Source of the DNA: a virus
Strand: one strand, 5' to 3'
Virus record (IMG/VR): IMGVR_UViG_3300048599_000816
Coordinates: 1-32,544 of that record
DNA: 32,544 bases
Made by a program: the position numbers and the translations under genes
Shown here: positions 8,167 to 29,044 of the stretch, in pieces
Position numbering within the stretch: the first letter of the stretch is position 1
Layout of the letters: each line of letters starts with the position of its first letter
The notes under the pieces: model-generated
Databases searched by the model: none
Seen by the model: the letters and a program-made list of their open reading frames with translations, nothing else
Told to the model about the DNA's origin: nothing

Positions 8167-8199
8167 AATCTCTCCTTGTTGAATACACTAACTATATCG

Positions 8200-11418: not shown

Positions 11419-11817
11419 CTAACCATTTTTTGCTTCAATTAAAGAACCGGGACGAAGCATTGCAACTCTTGCTTGTTCTGTATATTGCCTGTTTTTTTCC
11501 GAGATGATTTCGTAAGCAGCTATGATTCTTTGGAAAGCTTCTTTGTCTCCACCTTTGTCTGTGTGAGCTGTCTTAACCAGTTTTGCCATTGCTGAACGAA
11601 CATCAGCTTGAGAAGCACCTTCTTTGAGACCCAGAATTTCATACGGGTCATAGACACCAAGTATAGCGATTGCTTCTTCCCTGGTCATTTTTACGTAGTC
11701 AAAAGTTTGTTTCCATTGTTCAAGACTTCCACGTTCACCTTCATAAGTGCCGTAAGCAGTTGTGGTATCAGTCCAGATATTTCTTCTTGGTTTGTTTGGA
11801 TCTCTTCTTCGTGGCAT
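11419..11817 (-). CDS. J-domain (DnaJ-like) protein, 132 aa, with HTD in place of the canonical HPD
   Basis: DPYEILGL...AS.ADVRSAMAKLVKTAHTDKGGDKEAFQRIIAAYEIIS matches the J-domain helix II-loop-helix III pattern; internal ATG (M20 of track ORF) has AAGGAGAGAACATG RBS and motif. Confidence 0.75.
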   Translation of the reverse strand: MPRRRDPNKPRRNIWTDTTTAYGTYEGERGSLEQWKQTFDYVKMTREEAIAILGVYDPYEILGLKEGASQADVRSAMAKLVKTAHTDKGGDKEAFQRIIAAYEIISEKNRQYTEQARVAMLRPGSLIEAKNG

Positions 11818-11842
11818 GTTCTCTCCTTGTTTGTTGATAGTA

Positions 11843-11875
11843 ACTATATCGAGAGAAAGATGTTTAGTTGCCAAT
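11843..11875 (-). promoter_or_regulatory. conserved promoter-like motif (near-consensus copy: TTGGCA-N17-CGATATAGTTACTATCAAC)
   Basis: Seen in sequence upstream of the J-domain gene. Confidence 0.55.
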
Positions 11876-12473: not shown

Positions 12474-12493
12474 ATTCTCTCCTTGTTGATAGT

Positions 12494-12526
12494 AACTATA
12501 TCGAGAGAAACAAATGGAACTGCCAC
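12494..12526 (-). promoter_or_regulatory. conserved promoter-like motif (TGGCA-N17-CGATATAGTTACTATCAAC)
   Basis: Seen in sequence directly after terminator 12550-12587. Confidence 0.55.
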
Positions 12527-12547: not shown

Positions 12548-12623
12548 AGCCTAAACAAAACGAGCCTTAGGTGTTTACCTAAGGCTCTAAAATTTGTGTG
12601 ACGCACTGTCCCGAACTGATTAA
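12548..12623 (-). repeat. ~75-bp 3'-UTR repeat R1 containing an 11-bp-stem terminator hairpin (GAGCCTTAGGT-AAAC-ACCTAAGGCTC + GTTTTGTTT)
   Basis: About 88% identical to R2 at 17329-17403; starts about 5 nt after the stop of gene 12628..13257. Confidence 0.7.
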
Positions 12624-12627
12624 GCGA

Positions 12628-13257
12628 TTACTTTTTGTGTTTGAGAGAAAAATCAAAGGATGTGAGTAGACCATTCCAAAAATCTACATTACCATCGACT
12701 TGCTTCGAAAGATGCTTTCTGTGAATGACATGTAATGAATCGCCAAGTACTTTGTATGAGTTAATATTTGCATCTTTGCCTGTTGTGACTAACCAAAGAT
12801 TTTTGTTTTGTTTGGGATCGAGGTTATACTTCTTGACACCATGACAAAATGTTCTTGCAAGATCTGAATATCTAATTGTCATCTCAGGATTATGTTTGAA
12901 CTTGCATTGAATGACAATATCTACACCATTTTTTACGCCAGTTGCATCAACACCAAAGTCATCTCTTAAAGGGACTGGTTTATAATTAAGAACTCCTTGA
13001 TTATTTGCAAGTGAGTTCACATTCATCAAGTACTCAGTAATGAGTTCAAGAGCGTCGCCTCTGAATGAAAGGTGTTCTTCTGGGTCAATTCCTTCCCAAA
13101 ACAAAGTTTTAGAAATATTAAAAACTGTTTCAACCCAAACATCAACAGTTGCTGCTTTTTTGAGTGCAACCATTGCTTCAAGAACTTGACGATGTTCTGT
13201 TGTGATTCTTTTAATACATGAATGTTTGAGTAAAACTTTTGGATATTTGATATTCAT
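12628..13257 (-). CDS. Mrr-like PD-(D/E)xK restriction-endonuclease-fold protein (GVDATG...VDIVIQCKFK)
   Basis: Motif pattern D-G-x-D-x-x-G ... (D)-x-V-I-Q-x-K is typical of the Mrr catalytic domain; 9-nt gap after the helicase gene with AAGGAGAGAGAATG RBS, no separate motif (co-transcribed). Confidence 0.65.
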   Translation of the reverse strand: MNIKYPKVLLKHSCIKRITTEHRQVLEAMVALKKAATVDVWVETVFNISKTLFWEGIDPEEHLSFRGDALELITEYLMNVNSLANNQGVLNYKPVPLRDDFGVDATGVKNGVDIVIQCKFKHNPEMTIRYSDLARTFCHGVKKYNLDPKQNKNLWLVTTGKDANINSYKVLGDSLHVIHRKHLSKQVDGNVDFWNGLLTSFDFSLKHKK

Positions 13258-13266
13258 TCTCTCTCC

Positions 13267-14793
13267 TTAGTTGATTATTGAAGCCAATACTTTATGTTTC
13301 TTATAGTAAGAAATACGTTGTAAAGAAGACATACTCTTAAGTCGTATAATATCTTCAAAAAGATGTGCAAACTGTGCATTTCTTTCTGCATGATCAGGAG
13401 TTTCTGGATCTAAAACAGATTCAGCTTCTTCAAATTGAGATGAAGTACTTATTGTTGGACCTTCACGGAATTCTGGTGTAACTTCATAAGTATTTCTAAT
13501 ACATTCTATCAATGATTCGTTTGTGTCAAGCGCTTTTTCATTTAGCAAAGGATTTTGTATAATCCAAAAAACTGGTTTCAAAAGCGCTCTTGATACTACA
13601 ATTTTATTGTTCTTATTGATTTTTGTTCTTAGATTTTTGTTTGCTTTGATTGTTGCTCTATCGTCTTTTTGAATTCTTGCAGCTCTTCCTGCAGTTTGGA
13701 GAAACTTTACTTTATTGAGTTCTCTTAAAGGAAGAATTGCAGTAATATTAGGAAGATCAATACCTTCTGTCAAGATATCATAATGCATTATGATTGCATT
13801 TGTTTTATCAGAAAGAGCTTGAAGAGTTTTTATTGCTTTCATACGTTCGCAAGACTTTCCATTAATGAAATAGCCTCTACTTGAAAAAGCAATAACTGTA
13901 TATTCTAATGCTTTTGACCATGAATTGAATTGTTCATTTTGAACGAGATCAAGCATGTCAGATACACCAGTACAAGAAACTAAAAGTTTTGCACCAATCT
14001 TACCTTTGCTGTATTTTTGCACTTTCTTTTTGTGTTCCATAAAAGAACATTTTATAATATTATGATCAGTATGTTTACCAGATTCAAGAATGACTCTGTG
14101 AACAATAGGTGGAAGGATATCGCCAGTATCTATTGCGTGTCTTGGCGAGATTTGTGCAAGCACTTCTCCATAGAATTCTTTGTTATCCATACCTCTTGTA
14201 TTGCAACCATGAACAGCAGTTGCTGTAAAGAAATATGTTTGATTGCAGTTTGGAAGGATTTGTTCGACAGATTCGTGCTTATCATTTTTTGTAACTTCAT
14301 GTGCTTCATCAAAACAAGCAATGTCAATTTGAGTTTTTGATAGTCTCGAAATTGATTGATATGTACTTACAATTAGTAAGTGTCTGTTGAGTTTCTTTGC
14401 TTTTTCTACAGCTTTCTCAATGTCAGCAGAAGTTGTTGTGCGTGAGATGTTGCATTTCTTTGAAAAATCTCTACAATCTTCAACAAGTTTGATAACATCA
14501 TCATCGTCAACACCTTCACTACCTACTGTAAGAACATCAAATTTGAGATCAAATTCTATTGCTCTTTTGAGAAGATTTTCGATGAGTTGTTCGCAAAGAA
14601 GGAGACGGTGAGCAGCAATAAGACTTATGCCTGTTTGTTTTGTTTGTAGCGTTTCAATGATTTTGTAGACCTGGACCCAAGTTTTCCCAGATCCTGTAGG
14701 CATAATGATCTGGCCTTTGAGTTGACCAATAGTTGCATCAATAGCTTTTTTTTGGTGAACGCTCATTTCTGAGTAAAAAGATTGCAGATTCAT
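13267..14793 (-). CDS. SF2 DEAH-box helicase (motif I MPTGSGKT, II FDEAHE, III TATA, VI QTAGRAAR), ResIII/phage-helicase-like
   Basis: All core SF2 motifs read directly from translation; AAGGAGAGAGAATG RBS; motif 14818-14848. Confidence 0.9.
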   Translation of the reverse strand: MNLQSFYSEMSVHQKKAIDATIGQLKGQIIMPTGSGKTWVQVYKIIETLQTKQTGISLIAAHRLLLCEQLIENLLKRAIEFDLKFDVLTVGSEGVDDDDVIKLVEDCRDFSKKCNISRTTTSADIEKAVEKAKKLNRHLLIVSTYQSISRLSKTQIDIACFDEAHEVTKNDKHESVEQILPNCNQTYFFTATAVHGCNTRGMDNKEFYGEVLAQISPRHAIDTGDILPPIVHRVILESGKHTDHNIIKCSFMEHKKKVQKYSKGKIGAKLLVSCTGVSDMLDLVQNEQFNSWSKALEYTVIAFSSRGYFINGKSCERMKAIKTLQALSDKTNAIIMHYDILTEGIDLPNITAILPLRELNKVKFLQTAGRAARIQKDDRATIKANKNLRTKINKNNKIVVSRALLKPVFWIIQNPLLNEKALDTNESLIECIRNTYEVTPEFREGPTISTSSQFEEAESVLDPETPDHAERNAQFAHLFEDIIRLKSMSSLQRISYYKKHKVLASIIN

Positions 14794-14852
14794 TCTCTCT
14801 CCTTAGTTGATTACACTAACTATATCGCGAGAAGGAGAGTGAGCTGCCTAAA

Positions 14853-16145
14853 TTAATATGTCTTGCCGTTCGGGTAGAGTTTGTGATAGTCAGGTAAGAA
14901 AGTCTTTGCATATTCTCTTATAAGATGACTTTTAGGATATCCAAAGAAAGAAAAGAGTTTGTCATCATCCCAAGACTGATTAAAGTCAAGCCAGGGAACT
15001 AATGCAAGTTCTCCAATATTCAAAGAACTATTTATTTTTATAATAGAAATACATAATCTAATAAAGTCTGTTTTGATAGCAGATAAAAAATTGTTTTTAT
15101 TTTCTTCTGAAGAAAAAATAAAAACAATTTCACCAGGAATAACATTAGAAATTGATCTTGGCAAAAAATTCTGTTTTTGTTTTACTCCTTTTATAGTTTT
15201 GACTTTCTCTACATTCATTGGTGACAAAGTATAAAAATTCGATTGTGGTTTATCGCGTTTATTAGTTCTAATAGTAGATAATTGAACGAAGATTTCATCT
15301 TTGTGAAAGACTTCAGCTTCTCTTGAAGAAATCCTTTGAGTCTCAAAGCTTCCATTTGTATTGATAAATTTTTGAAGTTTTGGAATTAAGTCTTTTAAGA
15401 GATACCAATTTTCTCCATGTAAAGAAATATCATTAATATCTTTTATATCAATAAATTTACTTGTGTTAAGAAATCTTACTTTAATTGGTTTTGTTCTTAC
15501 TTTTTCAAAATTGATTTTACTTATTACGCAATCTGTACCAAGACCAATTCCAAAAACTGGATTAGGGTCAAAAAACTCAACAGACTCGAGATGTTCATTT
15601 GTCAATGATCTCATTTTTTGAAAAAGTTGCTTTCCTCTATTAGAATCGAGTCTAGTCTTTATATCAACAAGCCAAGCAGATGGATGTACACATATCAACT
15701 TTTTGAGCATATTTACTTTTTTCAAAGCAAGAATAATTTTGAGATCTACATCTCTATAAGGCGGGTTTGAAAAAGTAACATCAGCAGCTTGATTCATTTT
15801 ACAACCCACAAAAAACTCCTTAATATTCTTTTGATTCTTAAGAATCTTGTCCCAATCTTCTTTTCCGATCAAGACAGATTCAACACCATAAATCTGTGAA
15901 AATGCTACTTTCTCTTCTGTATCACCAACATACTGTACTTTCTTCATGTCATAATTTCGAGAAACTAAAACTTCTAAAAACTCAAGATTGAAGAAAACTC
16001 TAACAGACCCTTGCAAATCTCGTGGAATCATCTTCTCTACTAAATCAAATGGTGTAAAAAAAGTTTGAAGACCATCATGTACAATGTGTTTGATTATCTC
16101 TTTTCTACTAAAACTATTTGAAAAAACATCTTCACGTGCTCTCAT
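14853..16145 (-). CDS. gamma-class N6-adenine DNA methyltransferase-like protein with motif X (FFTPFDLVEKM) and motif IV (FSNPPY) but degenerate motif I
   Basis: NPPY and TPxxLV motifs seen in translation; likely start is M24 of track ORF (AAGGAGAGAGAATG), preceded by a degenerate motif copy. Confidence 0.75.
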   Translation of the reverse strand: MRAREDVFSNSFSRKEIIKHIVHDGLQTFFTPFDLVEKMIPRDLQGSVRVFFNLEFLEVLVSRNYDMKKVQYVGDTEEKVAFSQIYGVESVLIGKEDWDKILKNQKNIKEFFVGCKMNQAADVTFSNPPYRDVDLKIILALKKVNMLKKLICVHPSAWLVDIKTRLDSNRGKQLFQKMRSLTNEHLESVEFFDPNPVFGIGLGTDCVISKINFEKVRTKPIKVRFLNTSKFIDIKDINDISLHGENWYLLKDLIPKLQKFINTNGSFETQRISSREAEVFHKDEIFVQLSTIRTNKRDKPQSNFYTLSPMNVEKVKTIKGVKQKQNFLPRSISNVIPGEIVFIFSSEENKNNFLSAIKTDFIRLCISIIKINSSLNIGELALVPWLDFNQSWDDDKLFSFFGYPKSHLIREYAKTFLPDYHKLYPNGKTY

Positions 16146-16188
16146 TCTCTCTCCTTGATTTGTTGTTACTAACGATATCGCAACAAAA

Positions 16189-16812
16189 TCAAATAAGAGC
16201 CATACGTTTTTCAAATAATTTAGAGTTTTCTTCTACACGACTATTTGTACAACTATCAAACAAATCTTTTACTTTCTCAGTCTCATCATACCACTTGTCT
16301 CTATATACCCAAATCCCAGTCTCTGCTTCATCTGGCAACTTGCTTCTTTGAGTTACATCACCCATCAACAATCTAATATCAGTCCCAAAAGTATAAAGAA
16401 GTCTATAACAAGAACTTGGTTGTAACTCACTAAACAAGTGTGTCTCGTTTAAAAACTTATCTATTTTAAAACTTTCACCTAAAAGACTATATTTTTTTCT
16501 AAGCATCCTGACAGAAAACTGACCATACCCAGCACACAGGTCTTCTGTAGTAAGTTCTTGATTTTGCCATTCTTCATCTGATAGTTTATCTAACATGTAG
16601 TCAACAAGCCATAGAGGTGTAAAAACTTCTCCATGTAAGTCTGATTTTTCTTTATTTGTAGTTACTTGTTGATTTTCAAGTGGCGGGTGAGAAAGATCTA
16701 CATTTTCTATTAAAGGATACTTCGACAAATCTACATTCAAATTTGTAGATTCTAAGAATCTCTTTTCTATGAACTCTATCTTGTTTCTAGTACTACTTTT
16801 TCTAGCAATCAT
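16189..16812 (-). CDS. methyltransferase N-terminal-like protein with motif X (VFTPLWLVDYM) and motif I (EDLCAGYGQF) but no NPPY
   Basis: Motifs seen in translation; unusual expression signals (no SD, no conserved motif; TATAAT 15 nt upstream of ATG). Confidence 0.65.
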   Translation of the reverse strand: MIARKSSTRNKIEFIEKRFLESTNLNVDLSKYPLIENVDLSHPPLENQQVTTNKEKSDLHGEVFTPLWLVDYMLDKLSDEEWQNQELTTEDLCAGYGQFSVRMLRKKYSLLGESFKIDKFLNETHLFSELQPSSCYRLLYTFGTDIRLLMGDVTQRSKLPDEAETGIWVYRDKWYDETEKVKDLFDSCTNSRVEENSKLFEKRMALI

Positions 16813-16896
16813 AGTTGATACTACATTATAAAAAGAGTAGAAAAAGCGTATTTTTTAATGGTTTTATCACTTGCTACAAATTAAAGGAGACAACAA

Positions 16897-17307
16897 ATGT
16901 TAAACAGCGAACTTTTAATAAAGAGTATAGTTGCATCATTTTCTGACATGTCAACACATGAACTTGAAAAGTTTATAGAAAAAAGATATAAAGAAAAAGC
17001 ACCACAAAGTGAAATTGACAAGTTAGAGAATGAATATGCTACAAGAGTATCTGAAGACGATTTGGATATGTCAGAAGGTATCTCTCTTGAAGAACAACTT
17101 AGAAACATGTATCATAGATATATTACTCCTAAAGATAGAGGAGGAATGGAAGAAGAAGACATTATAAACAACATGAGGTCTGCAATAGATAGTTACAGGG
17201 GCACATCTTCTAACTTTTCAGATAAACAAATCTTAGATGCTGCTAAAGATGTTTATATGCATCGAAAAAACTTGCTTTTAAAATACAAACAAAAACGTTT
17301 AAAATAG
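16897..17307 (+). CDS. hypothetical acidic 136-aa protein (plus strand)
   Basis: ORF track; TTAAAGGAGACAACAAATG RBS; divergent from 16189..16812. Confidence 0.8.
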   Translation: MLNSELLIKSIVASFSDMSTHELEKFIEKRYKEKAPQSEIDKLENEYATRVSEDDLDMSEGISLEEQLRNMYHRYITPKDRGGMEEEDIINNMRSAIDSYRGTSSNFSDKQILDAAKDVYMHRKNLLLKYKQKRLK

Positions 17308-17328: not shown

Positions 17329-17403
17329 GCCTAAACAAAACGAGCCATAGGAGATAACCTAAGGCTCTAAAATTTGTGTGTTGTAATGTCCCGAACTGAT
17401 CAA
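17329..17403. repeat. ~75-bp repeat R2 with terminator hairpin (GAGCCATAGG..CCTAAGGCTC), between convergent genes; overlaps the stop codon of 17400..17702
   Basis: About 88% identical to R1; hairpin flanked by A-run on one side and T-rich run on the other, so potentially a bidirectional terminator. Confidence 0.65.
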
Positions 17404-17702
17404 CAGCAGGCAGTGAGTTGGAGTGCCGGTGCACTGATTTTTGCCTTTGGTGCTTCTAAGGGAGTCCGACCATACTTACGACCTTTGAGTCCAGCAGCTT
17501 CAAGATGTTTGCATGAACCATGACGAATATTACCACGACATGAGCATGTCCACCAACCAGCAGCTGCATCGTAAGAAATCATGTATTTGTTGTTTGAAGA
17601 CTCTGACCTGACTGTAAAGCGAACTTTGTAACGATCAGTATCAGGGAAAACTTCAACTGCATTTCTTGGGATCAGGGAATTTGTTGTTGTAAGTTCGTTC
17701 AT
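17400..17702 (-). CDS. SWIM zinc-finger protein (WTCSCRGNIRHGSCKHL)
   Basis: CxCx(n)CxH pattern seen in translation; AAGGAGAGAACCATG RBS; motif near 17745. Confidence 0.8.
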   Translation of the reverse strand: MNELTTTNSLIPRNAVEVFPDTDRYKVRFTVRSESSNNKYMISYDAAAGWWTCSCRGNIRHGSCKHLEAAGLKGRKYGRTPLEAPKAKISAPALQLTACC

Positions 17703-23582: not shown

Positions 23583-24629
23583 TCATTCTTCGATAATGAA
23601 GCCTGCGCTTTTTAGAATTGCAGCACATTTTTTCACAATGCTTTTCTTATTCTTCCGGTCCATTTCTTTAAGATTTGGATCAGCATGAATGCAAAGTGCA
23701 AAGGTGATATCAAGTATTTCGCCAGCAGTAAGTTTTCCGAATTCTTCGATTGTGCTACCGGGTTCAGAAGTTTTGAGTGCTTCGATCTTCTGGAGATGCT
23801 CATTTTTAGCAGTCGTTTTGATAGAAGCTTTTTCCTGTTTCTGAGTTTTTTCTCCATTACGACGTTTACTTCCTTCAACAGCCTTTTCGATCAAGGGAAC
23901 TTTTGTTACAGAGATTTCTGTTCCTTTATTGAGGCCCATGACTTCATATCGACAAACCCGCATTTTCTGGTTGTTATAGTCATTAGGAACTGCAACAACA
24001 TCCCTCGGATTGACTTTGACTTCAATCAAAGTGCCGTAATTGCCACGAGCATAACTGAATGCAGCCACATGCAGACCTGATGAACAAGTTTCATTCCGGT
24101 TTGGATTTACCTTTTCTCTGGGCATAGTAACAACTGCACCAACATTATTGCAGAAAGTACCTGTGTGTGCATCGACCAGATCACCGTTTCCATTTTTCTT
24201 TACGCCCTTATAACCAAGAAAGCAACCATCATGAGTGATGGGCATCTTATTTGCTTCCAAGAAGAGAAACAAGTGCTCTCTGCTTTCTTTACTGGGATTC
24301 TCCTGCACATTGCGCCAGAAATTCAGAAGTGGAAGATGTGGTAAACCCTGTTTGCAGAAAGCAACAATACGATCGGTGATTGTATCATGTACTTCAACAC
24401 CGTCGATAATGACAAGACCAGAATCTTTGTCAACTTTGATTGTGCCCTGGGAGTATTCTTCGATTTTCGCCCCAACATCCAACTGTACTTTGAGTTCATC
24501 ATCAGATGCACCAGCTAAGAGCATAGCCATGACTTTGTCGTATTTTTCTGTGCCCTTTTCAAGGGTAATGGGACGACAGCCTGAAAGAGAAACTACCAGA
24601 TAATTTCCGGTAGACAACCAATTTGCCAT
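23583..24629 (-). CDS. hypothetical 348-aa protein, no motif recognised
   Basis: ORF track; CAGGAGAGAACATTATG RBS; motif near 24662. Confidence 0.85.
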   Translation of the reverse strand: MANWLSTGNYLVVSLSGCRPITLEKGTEKYDKVMAMLLAGASDDELKVQLDVGAKIEEYSQGTIKVDKDSGLVIIDGVEVHDTITDRIVAFCKQGLPHLPLLNFWRNVQENPSKESREHLFLFLEANKMPITHDGCFLGYKGVKKNGNGDLVDAHTGTFCNNVGAVVTMPREKVNPNRNETCSSGLHVAAFSYARGNYGTLIEVKVNPRDVVAVPNDYNNQKMRVCRYEVMGLNKGTEISVTKVPLIEKAVEGSKRRNGEKTQKQEKASIKTTAKNEHLQKIEALKTSEPGSTIEEFGKLTAGEILDITFALCIHADPNLKEMDRKNKKSIVKKCAAILKSAGFIIEE

Positions 24630-25127: not shown

Positions 25128-27302
25128 TTATATCAGTTTTTTATTAGCTATAAGGTCAGTTTCCATGAGTTCAATGTACTTTGCCATTGCAGTAACTGTA
25201 CTTGAATTAGACATTTCATAATTGTTTGCTATACTGAGAAGAGGAAACATCTTGTAAAGTTCTTTGATGTCAGCATTCAAATTTGAAAGTTGACTTACAC
25301 CAGAGTATTTGTCAATGAGGTTTGAAGGTAAAGAAACTGGTGCTGCAGGAACTGAATTCAAGACGTTTACCATGTCGCTGAATTTTTTTGATTTGAAAGG
25401 AATGTTCAAGAGCCATTTTCTTTCGCTCAAAATGCTGTGTATCTTTGCACCATCAATCATCTTTGTTATAATTGCTGGAGTCAATGCATCCAGTTTATCT
25501 TTGATGCTTCCGAAAAAGTTCACAAGTTTCGCACCACGATTTTTGTTTGCATAGATAATTCTAAAGTCTGGGAGTAAACCAGCTTTTACTGCATAACGAT
25601 ACATATTCATTTCTTCTGTGTTAGTATCAGGAAGAACGAGAATGTCATCAACAAAGCAAACTGCTGTATTTTCAGGTTTAAGTGGCGAACCACTTTCTGT
25701 TGTAACTTGAGTGTCAGTTACTTTAACATATACGTACGAACCAGGTCTTGATTGACCAGAACGTTTTGTATACTGTTGATCACTGATTGTCTGTACATAG
25801 ACTTTCAAAGTGTCAGTTGGTCGTGTAAAAGGAACTTTGGGTGTTGCACCAGATGCATCTTTCACGATTTTCATTTTATCAACTGACGAATAAAGCGAAT
25901 ATGCAATCCCAAGTTTTCCAAGCAATTCAACATCATGTAAGTATCTTCTCATTGATTTTGCAAGACCACGTTTCTCTTTGTAAGCGAGTTCACTGTATCT
26001 TAAGAACTTCGGGTCTGTAGGACGTATTGCAATGTATTCTTCATGTTTTGAAAAGATTGTTGCATCTTTCAAAGGAATGTATGATGATGTTTGATCGAAC
26101 AAGAATATAGGAGTTGTTGTAAGTTTTTTACTAACATCTGTTGTTCTTGTTCTTGAAACTTTACCACGATCAATCTCAACATTGAAGAATTGAAGTGTTT
26201 GAAAATGTTCGTCAAGTCTCAATTTCAATGACCGTTCATCAAACTTTGAAATTGTACTAAAGAAAGGATCATTGGAAGTTAGTTGCTGTTTGATGATTTT
26301 GAACCAGATATTTGAATCACGGTAATGATTGAAGATAGCAGCATCGATCCATGACTGGTTTTGTTTGTAAAGTGCTTCATAATTCGATTTGCAAAGATTA
26401 ACAAGTTCAACGAAACGTTTGTTGATTGCAGTTTTGGTTTTGTCATCGTACTGGAGAGTTTCTCTGTTTGCAGAAATTGTAAGTTCTCCAACGTTGAACT
26501 TGAAAATGATTAAAAAATCACTAACATAGTAATTTGCAAAGTTCATTGCACTCGTACTAATAGGATAGTAAATACCATCAAGCAAAAGTCCATAACCTGA
26601 GTTGAGAAGATCCTGTTCAATGATTAAGAAGTTTTCATCATCAAGAACTGGTTTAAGAACGATAGTATCGAACTTACGAGAGAAGTTTTTGTAGATGGGT
26701 CTCATTGGCCAGAAAGCAGTAGCTTTATAAACTTCACGTTCAAATTCTCTACGATCCTGTTCTTTGATCGGTATGATGATTGTTGTACCAGAATTCTCTG
26801 TTGATTCAGCAGAATCAATGCAGTAGATTTTTCCTTTACGACCCTCTTCGATTGCAGCAACATAAGTATATTTGATTCCTGCAACGATTGTTTCGATTGT
26901 GAAGTTGTCAGCATAACTGAAAGGTGTTTTTGCACCAAGACCAAAACCACCAGTGTAAGTGTCAGATTCACGTTTTGTGCTTGAGCCGTAGTTAACGAAA
27001 ACGTCAGCCATACGTTCTGGTGAGATACCAGGGCCAAAGTCCTTGAAAGAGATTGTCATGTCACTGGCAGACAAAGCAGAATGATTGATTGCGATCTCGA
27101 TAGGTACGTTGTTTTCTGATTCGCGGTTTGCATCCCTTGAATTTGATGCGATCTCTCTGCAAATTGCACCAATTGGATTTGAGTAAAGTTTAGAACGAAG
27201 TATTTCCAAAACCAGACCCATATCAGCATCTTTGATACCGAAACTGAATTCTTTAAAACTTTGGGATGTTGAAACTGTTGTTGGTTTGTTTTCAATAATC
27301 AT
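25128..27302 (-). CDS. GHKL-superfamily ATPase (Hsp90/histidine-kinase/MutL-like ATP-binding fold), 724 aa
   Basis: N-box EIASNSRDA, G1 DFGPGIS, G2 TGGFGLGAKTPF in the N-terminal ~130 aa; no Toprim EGDSA motif seen; AAGGAGAGAGAAAATG RBS; motif near 27351. Confidence 0.85.
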   Translation of the reverse strand: MIIENKPTTVSTSQSFKEFSFGIKDADMGLVLEILRSKLYSNPIGAICREIASNSRDANRESENNVPIEIAINHSALSASDMTISFKDFGPGISPERMADVFVNYGSSTKRESDTYTGGFGLGAKTPFSYADNFTIETIVAGIKYTYVAAIEEGRKGKIYCIDSAESTENSGTTIIIPIKEQDRREFEREVYKATAFWPMRPIYKNFSRKFDTIVLKPVLDDENFLIIEQDLLNSGYGLLLDGIYYPISTSAMNFANYYVSDFLIIFKFNVGELTISANRETLQYDDKTKTAINKRFVELVNLCKSNYEALYKQNQSWIDAAIFNHYRDSNIWFKIIKQQLTSNDPFFSTISKFDERSLKLRLDEHFQTLQFFNVEIDRGKVSRTRTTDVSKKLTTTPIFLFDQTSSYIPLKDATIFSKHEEYIAIRPTDPKFLRYSELAYKEKRGLAKSMRRYLHDVELLGKLGIAYSLYSSVDKMKIVKDASGATPKVPFTRPTDTLKVYVQTISDQQYTKRSGQSRPGSYVYVKVTDTQVTTESGSPLKPENTAVCFVDDILVLPDTNTEEMNMYRYAVKAGLLPDFRIIYANKNRGAKLVNFFGSIKDKLDALTPAIITKMIDGAKIHSILSERKWLLNIPFKSKKFSDMVNVLNSVPAAPVSLPSNLIDKYSGVSQLSNLNADIKELYKMFPLLSIANNYEMSNSSTVTAMAKYIELMETDLIANKKLI

Positions 27303-27374
27303 TTTCTCTCTCCTTATTAGTTAGTGTTCCTTTTCCTTACACTAACTATATCGCGAGTTATCGCGGTTTTGCCA

Positions 27375-28234: not shown

Positions 28235-29044
28235 CTATATCGAGAGATTAGTTGTTTCAGCCACCTTTTTTTGTCTTCTTTTTTGTTGTGCTATTCTCAT
28301 GTTTTTGATTTGCTCTGGCGTTCTTTTTTGACCATAAACATTGCTTAAAATCCCTTTTCTTCCATAACTTGAATTGTTTTTGCCAGATCTTTCTTTGCTA
28401 TACAAATCTTTTAATTGTTTTGCTTTTTCTTCTCCATAAAACTCTTCATAAGTCTTTCCTTTTCTTGAAGATTCTCTTCCTGTTATATCACCAAAATTGC
28501 GATTACCTAACATTGCTTGACTATGTTGTTTTCGAAGTTTGTCACCTTTTTCTTTCCCGTAGATTTGTTCGTAAGTCTTGTTTTTACGTTTTTCACTGAT
28601 TAACTTTTTTGTAGATTCTAAGACAATCTTTCCTTTTTGTGACAAACTCATTTTTTGCTTTGTTTTTTCAGAATGTTTCCTACCAGAGAAAGTATCTCCT
28701 CCATCACCCCCAGGTGTCAAATTTGTTAAAGGTCCTACAAGTCCATTTTGTACTTTTCTTCGGCCTATGTTCTTTATCAAGTCTATTTCTAGATCATTTG
28801 CTTCTTTAAGGAAAAGATTTTCTTTTACTTTGATAATTATTGGTGTTAAACCTAAACTTACAATCTTTTGAATTTTCTTTGATTTCATAGTTCCATCAAG
28901 ATAAACCAAATGATCTAAGAATCTTTTGTTTCTTCCTCTTCCAACATAAAAAGGCTCGTAATCAAATTCATACTTGTCATACTTGTATTTTTTGTTTTTT
29001 CTTGGATCAAAGTAGATGTATACATAAAAGTTGTTCTTTAACAC
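28235..29044 (-). CDS. GIY-YIG homing endonuclease with three NUMOD3-like repeats (GRKHSEKTKQKMS.. / GRESSRKGKTYEEF.. / GKNNSSYGRKG..), GTG start
   Basis: N-terminal VYIYFD...PFYVGRGRNKRFLDH matches GIY-(10-11)-YIG + R + H pattern (established family signature); RBS AAGGAGA buried in a perfect hairpin; stop codon is the TAG of a motif copy. Confidence 0.8.
   Translation of the reverse strand: MLKNNFYVYIYFDPRKNKKYKYDKYEFDYEPFYVGRGRNKRFLDHLVYLDGTMKSKKIQKIVSLGLTPIIIKVKENLFLKEANDLEIDLIKNIGRRKVQNGLVGPLTNLTPGGDGGDTFSGRKHSEKTKQKMSLSQKGKIVLESTKKLISEKRKNKTYEQIYGKEKGDKLRKQHSQAMLGNRNFGDITGRESSRKGKTYEEFYGEEKAKQLKDLYSKERSGKNNSSYGRKGILSNVYGQKRTPEQIKNMRIAQQKRRQKKVAETTNLSI

Follow-up and report, generated by a model that had tools for sequence, protein, structure and literature searches.

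Type ISP restriction-modification (R-M) enzymes are the simplest model for the coupling of target recognition, methylation, ATP-driven translocation and cleavage. They are defined as single-chain enzymes, in which a nuclease, a helicase, a coupler domain, a methyltransferase (MTase) and a target-recognition domain (TRD) follow one another in that order on one polypeptide. The genes described here lie in 32,544 nucleotides of viral DNA (IMG/VR record IMGVR_UViG_3300048599_000816, positions 1 to 32,544; this whole stretch is referred to as the window), where four separate open reading frames (ORFs) occur in the order mtA, mtB, hel and nuc. We consider it rather probable that the four gene products are the subunits of one Type ISP-like, ATP-dependent R-M machine, distributed among four polypeptides and encoded in a permuted gene order. 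This reading is built on the folds, motifs, family relationships, fusions and synteny of the four proteins.

The original prediction of four consecutive minus-strand genes held at every coordinate. The mtA gene (16189..16812, minus strand) encodes a predicted half-MTase subunit of 207 amino acids with motif X (GEVFTP, with FTP at residue 64), motif I (DLCAGYGQF, with DLCAGYG at residue 91), a motif II-like E129 and a motif III-like G151-D152; the sequence contains no motif IV, i.e., no (N/D)PP(Y/F/W). The mtB gene product (14853..16145, minus strand, 430 amino acids from the ATG) consists of a degenerate N-terminal half, in which motif X is kept (FTP at residue 30) and the glycine loop of motif I is deleted, followed by a core with NPPY at residues 127-130 and a TRD-like C-terminal region; no G-x-G is present in its motif I region (VRVFFNLEFLEVL). 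This partition of motifs between two proteins had been read correctly at the outset, as had the complete superfamily 2 (SF2) helicase encoded by hel (13267..14793, minus strand, 508 amino acids), a DEAH protein resembling the Type ISP motor, whose motifs are HQ (residue 13), GSGKT (34), DEAH (162), TAT (190) and QTAGRAAR (366, matching QxxGRxxR). The nuc gene (12628..13257, minus strand) encodes a 209-amino-acid, Mrr-type PD-QxK protein with candidate catalytic residues E71/E75, D104 and Q117-C-K119; D100 is also present. The intergenic gaps are 43, 59 and 9 nt, the last as first given, and the TAA stop codon of hel falls within the ribosome binding site (RBS) of nuc (aacTAAggagagagaATG). All four ORFs are real genes because each belongs to a conserved family with invariant motif residues.

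Pfam searches recognized the helicase (ResIII, 5.5e-14, plus DEAD and Helicase_C), gave a sub-threshold match for the nuclease (Mrr_cat_2, E 0.019) and gave none for mtA or mtB. Of the checks proposed with the original prediction, Pfam by itself recovered hel alone, and the motif-based call of all four genes exceeded standard annotation. A profile of nine module helicases (profile A6) matched LlaBIII (4.3e-13) and LlaGI (4.5e-13) best, over RecA1 and motifs V-VI, with XPB (1e-8), HsdR (1e-7) and UvrB well behind. The hel gene product is assigned from these matches as a putative SF2 helicase-like, double-stranded DNA (dsDNA) translocase akin to the LlaGI and LlaBIII motors of Type ISP enzymes. 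The catalytic residues are invariant in the nuc family. The only match of the nuc family profile among PDB sequences, to TEX1, was spurious, and a structure comparison was therefore needed for this protein. We assign nuc as an Mrr-like nuclease domain with PD-QxK, as in Type ISP enzymes. An exhaustive nuc-profile search yielded 386 clusters, with at least 11 full-length proteins in which an N-terminal nuclease is followed by a helicase of the hel family (hel E-values down to 2e-115). Among solved structures, hel and nuc come closest to R-M enzymes and not to helicases of replication or repair.

The association of the four components extends beyond the window. A 1251-amino-acid protein (P0326) has a nuclease at residues 28-206, a ResIII helicase at 213-711, an N6_Mtase/Eco57I domain at 848-1046 and a further C-terminal region, which is the canonical Type ISP order. 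All four components occur together in the window, L002, L003/4, L005 (a 446-kb contig in which the MTase is fused), L007, L008, L009, L051 and the cultured Synechococcus phage S-CAM7, so that linkage holds over nine loci with mtA identity down to approximately 36%. The S-CAM7 locus (L096, KU686213, 41781-45522) has a permuted order, with nuc (S420910_054) followed by an mtB-like gene (055), hel (056) and an mtA-like gene (057, 133 amino acids); the three non-helicase genes of the module are annotated there as hypothetical. As a cultured phage with the same genes, S-CAM7 makes the system open to direct testing. More than 15 bacterial genomes (L075, L084 and about 15 others in L076-L093) contain an mtA-like ORF of about 225 amino acids (N6_Mtase/MmeI_Mtase, motifs X-I) directly 5' of an Eco57I-domain ORF of about 530 amino acids. 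A T5orf172-ResIII protein of about 850 amino acids comes next in the two bacterial loci that were inspected (L075, 6983-11784; L084, 6920-11782), and the PADLOC model PDLC03626 (1359 positions) spans the bacterial helicase and the large MTase ORF. The bacterial three-gene operon appears to be a split, Type ISP-like system of cells, in which another kind of nuclease is used. Fusions, synteny and bacterial analogy all point to the four parts forming one system.

The mtA family, with over 240 clusters and counterparts in bacteria but no Pfam entry, is unannotated and has a role that can be tested. GEVFTP, DLCxGxGQF, E129 and G151-D152 were invariant or nearly so over more than 242 clusters. Comparison with PHROG gave 'DNA methyltransferase' at 2.6e-5, and a tblastn search with mtA in phages gave no match. 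The mtA profile also matched an internal gamma-MTase motif X-I region of ORFs of 1300-2000 amino acids in viral and giant-virus loci (L022, L025, L040, L041, L044, L045, L054, L064, L067, L069 and others), and these ORFs may be DarB-like MTase-helicase giants. The mtB family, likewise unannotated, comprises 70 clusters in which NPPY and the motif X residues T31/P32 are invariant and D75, the acid at the end of strand b2, is nearly invariant; the family consensus at motif I is the glycine-less VLFNLEFLE. Conservation across both families rules out pseudogene status for either gene, and with it the original suggestion of a pseudogenised duplicate.

The original description of mtA and mtB as paralogs applies to part of their length. 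Profile-profile comparison aligned the two over motif X and strand b1 only (probability 73%), with mtB lacking the six-residue glycine loop, and they are therefore distant paralogs in the N-terminal half only, neither of which is decaying. Sequence profiles of mtA and mtB gave weak matches only in the PDB, namely LlaGI at motif X-I (E 0.44) and an RsmD-like protein around (D/N)PPY (E 0.014). In an AlphaFold2 (AF2) model of a natural fusion, the mtA portion formed a separate half-domain pattern of strands b1-b3 plus a hairpin, and the mtB portion had its own complete b1-b7 strand pattern. The model aligned with MmeI over 343 residues and with LlaBIII over 336, which, judged by aligned lengths only, exceeds the catalytic domain alone; mtB is predicted, from the model and from a variable stretch in the middle of the C-terminal region of the L073 paralogs, to have a C-terminal TRD, as Type ISP enzymes do. 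The bacterial large subunits have a semi-canonical motif I (LDPCTKSGVFL), so that the small subunit is an old partner and the loop deletion a phage-lineage trait. Aeromonas T4-like phages hold only the part of mtB from NPPY to the C-terminus. This part was 28% identical to mtB in ORF084c of Aeromonas phage Aeh1 (L001) and 11 other Aeromonas T4-like records, with a C-terminal extension of about 150 amino acids, and the ORF084c-type genes have no neighbour from the mtA, hel or nuc families. Aeh1 ORF085c was considered as a divergent mtA and was rejected (hhalign probability 0.2%).

The split (METHYLTRANSFERASE) takes several forms, which were coded with A for mtA, N for the N-terminal half of mtB and C for its NPPY-to-C-terminus part. 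A and N-C are separate in the window, L002, L003, L008 and L010, and are fused as A-N-C, with mtA first, in L005, L074 and P0045-type proteins (mtA-mtB fusions are P0045, P0049, P0050, P0053, P0057 and P0068). Three ORFs (A, N and C) are present in L007 and L009. The N half is missing where A is accompanied by C (L073 and L012-L015; P0033 begins with MKKFKEAPDVTFSNPPY, at b4) and in the A-C fusions P0024 and P0046, where mtA is joined straight to an mtB without its first 90-100 residues or so. These N-less forms, as mtA with mtB-C in L073 and as fused mtA-mtB-C in P0024 and P0046, restore the full canonical motif set X-I-II-III-IV, and in them the sole motif I must come from mtA, as must the N-terminal half of the catalytic fold. 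Across these architectures a small GEVFTP...DLCxGxGQF subunit is partnered with or fused to a subunit with NPPY and the TRD, the composition of a split or heteromeric gamma-class MTase. In L073 (149-2675), one mtA lies between two short mtB genes that start at motif IV and are 40% identical to each other. Their cores and C-termini are conserved and their middle is divergent, which suggests two specificity subunits sharing one mtA.

The role of mtA beside a loop-less mtB is of greatest interest and also the feature of the system that is understood least. A quite unlikely extension is that mtA and mtB form a true heteromeric enzyme with exchangeable halves: the half-Rossmann fold of mtA, the only one able to bind S-adenosylmethionine (SAM), would be supplied in trans, the loop-less mtB-N would be a pseudo-half that takes the same place on the NPPY core and holds it off, and its exchange for mtA would toggle between methylation and restriction. 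The idea is drawn from the different upstream element of mtA, by which the timing of mtA expression could differ, from the shared mtA of L073 and from the occurrence of mtB-N as a separate ORF in L007 and L009. If true, a phage could by this means switch a motor-driven nuclease between self and non-self at a set time, and DNA R-M would have a parallel to the METTL3-METTL14 type of labour division.

In the proposed machine, mtA and mtB would jointly constitute a gamma-class N6-adenine DNA MTase, with the SAM-binding motifs on mtA and the catalytic NPPY and DNA-reading part on mtB; hel would be a dsDNA translocase of the LlaGI/LlaBIII type and the 209-amino-acid protein a Mrr-type PD-QxK nuclease. 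On the model of LlaGI and LlaBIII, mtA/mtB would recognize a short asymmetric site and methylate one adenine on one strand, marking the phage DNA. On unmodified DNA, hel would translocate at the expense of ATP, and nuc would nick and break the DNA when converging complexes collide. We infer complex formation, methylation, translocation-collision cleavage and the biological role from the relationships described above. The use of the system is probably the destruction of host or competing-phage DNA while the methyl mark shields the phage genome, as drawn from its setting in a huge lytic-type phage, in a region containing rII genes and with phage-specific promoter-like elements.

Several observations weigh against a single machine. 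PADLOC gave no strong system match, and the weak matches obtained were generic (PbeA, 7.9e-9 over 130 residues; REase_III, 2e-5; MTase_II/IIG, 2e-3). The four proteins include no recognized counterpart of the Type ISP coupler domain; about 120 C-terminal residues of hel and about 50 N-terminal residues of mtA lie outside the assigned parts. Protection of the phage genome during replication would be a further difficulty. In L006, L012, L013, L015, L073 and L074, neither a helicase nor a nuclease lies within 7 kb of the mtA/mtB pair, and the pair can therefore act as an orphan MTase. Stand-alone helicases with about 29% identity to hel are present in 419 T4-like cyanophage records. The stand-alone gene encodes a ResIII helicase of about 414 amino acids ('T4-GC 36'; e.g., L097, Synechococcus phage S-SM1, GU071094, 42275-43519), and its neighbours in S-SM1, the one stand-alone locus inspected, had no MTase or nuclease signature. 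This widespread cyanophage gene may be derived from, or ancestral to, an R-M translocase. The original prediction had named a helicase that groups with phage replication helicases lacking an R-M link as one of the results that would overturn it; the 419 records touch that point, but the nearest solved relatives of hel are still R-M motors. The orphan pairs of L073, L074 and several contigs of huge phages, the solitary cyanophage helicases, the mostly stand-alone nuc-family proteins of about 200 amino acids recovered in a representative search and the frequency of orphan MTases in jumbo phages (PMC7824862) would all fit two independent, often adjacent modules, with mtA and mtB as an orphan protective (anti-restriction) MTase and hel-nuc as a separate machine for host-chromosome degradation, recombination or repair that is not targeted by the MTase. 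We regard such a pair of modules as unlikely, though deserving of some weight, because linkage over the nine loci (mtA identity to approximately 36%) survives the shuffled gene order of S-CAM7, a nuclease, a helicase and an MTase form the single chain of P0326, the bacterial analogues and PDLC03626 tie the same type of MTase to a ResIII helicase, and the closest solved relatives of both motor and nuclease are R-M enzymes.

Other difficulties concern methylation itself. The motif I glycine loop is missing across the whole mtB family, which makes the SAM site uncertain, and the AF2 strand pattern gives no account of how the SAM site of mtA would reach the NPPY of mtB. The MTase-like proteins might no longer methylate, with mtB serving for recognition only and mtA as a SAM sensor or regulator of a site-targeted or SAM-gated translocating nuclease directed against host DNA, and with phage DNA protected otherwise (base modification, site avoidance). 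The retention of the loop deletion throughout the mtB family would then make sense, as would the invariant SAM motifs of an mtA without a catalytic motif and the TATAAT that precedes mtA, unlike mtB and hel with their phage-wide element. The (near-)invariance of NPPY, T31/P32 and D75 in mtB fits a retained catalytic role, however, the L073, P0024 and P0046 architectures rebuild the full set of motifs X-I-II-III-IV, and motif I is still semi-canonical in the large subunits of bacteria; loss of methylation is accordingly judged distinctly improbable. DarB of phage P1 has both an adenine MTase domain and a helicase domain. A DarB-type anti-defence function, in which the MTase and helicase shield incoming phage DNA from host Type I restriction and the nuclease is an unrelated neighbour, could be argued from that precedent and from the many viral loci that were found with the mtA profile and encode proteins of 1300-2000 amino acids with an internal gamma-MTase motif region. 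It is highly improbable for the window, where the proteins are small and separate rather than a giant virion protein, the helicase is nearest to R-M translocases, and nuc is tightly coupled to hel (9-nt gap, RBS over the hel stop), is fused to the helicase elsewhere and has invariant catalytic residues. One dispersed Type ISP-like machine remains the preferred reading.

The regulatory signals of the cluster are largely those of the phage itself. The element CGATAT(A/C)GTTAGT is present in 21 copies in the window, compared to 2.1 expected, typically 10-25 nt 5' of a uniform RBS, AAGGAGAGA(N2-3)ATG, which is present in 17 copies, compared to 0.5 expected. Together they are probably an early or middle promoter and the Shine-Dalgarno (SD) sequence of the phage. 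Minus-strand examples of this phage-wide, promoter-like element include one 5' of mtB (16168-16180; CGATATCGTTAGT) and one 5' of hel (14815-14827; CGATATAGTTAGT) as well as copies at 27341-27353, 12491-12503 and 8187-8199. A near-identical RBS, AAGGAGAGAGA-ATG, precedes mtB, hel and nuc. A longer mtB ORF, to 16214, is possible with a TTG start; the ATG at 16145 with its AAGGAGAGAGA RBS is the likely start. The nuc gene is preceded by the RBS alone and mtA by neither RBS nor element. Since the elements upstream of mtB, hel and nuc are phage-wide, the module runs on the phage's own signals. A TATAAT hexamer (16825..16830, minus strand) does lie upstream of mtA, in a divergent intergenic region (16813-16896; a plus-strand ORF starts at 16897), and the lack of an SD and of the conserved motif noted earlier for mtA was confirmed; the spacing between hexamer and ATG is 12 nt (18 nt from the first base of the hexamer), not the 15 nt first given, and no SD or clear -35 element was found upstream of mtA. 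A terminator-like hairpin (12562..12587, minus strand) with an 11-bp stem, six GC pairs and a T-rich tail lies 40 nt past the nuc stop codon and is likely the end of the transcription unit. The four-gene cluster appears to be a discrete unit.

The GC content of the operon (12628-16812) is 0.327, compared to 0.374 for the remaining window, and that of mtB alone is 0.299. This lower GC content, despite regulatory motifs of the phage type, may reflect an old horizontal acquisition. The source is an uncultured huge phage. The window proteins are on record in a JGI contig of 426,911 bp, and the closest match of rIIA is an uncultured phage record of 462 kb; a search for near-identical DNA with the 5.5-kb region gave no match in INPHARED. 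Nearly the whole 32-kb window is transcribed from one strand, and it also encodes rIIA (25128-27302) and rIIB (23583-24629). A minus-strand ORF a few kb from rIIA (28235-29044) matched a homing-endonuclease PHROG (phrog_314, 2.8e-13). Two further minus-strand ORFs were noted by eye, one of 100 amino acids (17400-17702) with a SWIM-type zinc-finger-like pattern (CxC...C.H) and one of 151 amino acids (11419-11874) with a J-domain-like segment ('...KTAHTDKGG') in which HTD replaces HPD.

Among described systems, Type IIL/IIG enzymes and gamma-class MTases whose TRD is of the TaqI type (MmeI, M.TaqI, M.BseCI, CamA, DrdV) differ from the window genes in two respects: their catalytic domain is not split and has a canonical motif I, and they lack a helicase motor. 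The bacterial relatives (Planctomycetota, OY780932; Acidobacteria Mor1, CP011806) are alike in their two-protein MTase, with a small subunit (HGEVFTPLWMVEEML...EPACGSGNFL) close to mtA and a large NPPY subunit, and in the ResIII helicase with a nuclease domain encoded next to it. They differ in that the nuclease is a GIY-YIG-type T5orf172 domain fused at the helicase N-terminus rather than a separate Mrr-type protein, and in being cellular, not viral; a search with the hidden Markov model of the phage helicase did not detect the helicase of these relatives. Type III enzymes (Mod and Res) are also multi-subunit, and Res is an SF2 helicase-like ATPase followed by a PD-(D/E)xK nuclease, as in the gene order of the window; there are weak PADLOC and Pfam ResIII matches as well. 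The Type III Mod subunit is a beta-class MTase with a central TRD. The window MTase, in contrast, is predicted to be gamma-class with a C-terminal TRD, and natural fusions of its family place the nuclease N-terminal to the helicase. Type III membership is rejected because the predicted MTase class is gamma rather than beta, so that of the two classes originally proposed, Type III-like or Type ISP-like, the latter is the one supported. Type I enzymes use a separate HsdS specificity subunit with two TRDs, in M2S1 and R2M2S1 assemblies. Type I membership is rejected because the operon has no HsdS-like gene; the TRD lies within mtB, and the HsdR-type matches of hel are weak.

In MANTIS (Gao_RL), asymmetric sites are hemimethylated, and this is coupled to a helicase-nuclease effector with a preference for site pairs in inverted orientation (bioRxiv 10.64898/2026.09.23.753747); MANTIS requires an AAA+ ATPase and a co-regulator, both of which are absent from the window cluster. 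Hachiman is a pair of a separate nuclease and an SF2 helicase; it is without an MTase, unlike the window cluster. Both were rejected, as no PADLOC model of either matched the window proteins, and neither PADLOC nor NCBIfam led to a known system; in PADLOC, the marker proteins specific to BREX, DISARM, Gao_RL/MANTIS, Hachiman, Druantia and others gave no match beyond the weak generic ones. The open-access literature searched contained nothing on the mtA family, on a Type ISP-like system that is split or carried by a phage, or on a multi-subunit layout of this kind in a phage.

The cluster shares ancestry with Type ISP enzymes and, by analogy, would work likewise. Type ISP enzymes occur on bacterial plasmids and chromosomes and have an unsplit MTase; the present system occurs in huge phages and divides the MTase in two, with the SAM motifs on a half-subunit and with NPPY and the TRD on a second subunit that has no glycine loop in its own N-terminal half. 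A concrete case is thus provided of huge, apparently lytic phages and one cultured cyanophage with what would be a complete motor-driven restriction system, which bears on how phages destroy host and rival DNA. A natural version with one activity per polypeptide and a divided MTase fold would mean that coupling in trans is possible. Such a dispersed version would tie the ISP class evolutionarily to the multi-subunit Type I and Type III enzymes and would offer separable parts for mechanistic work.

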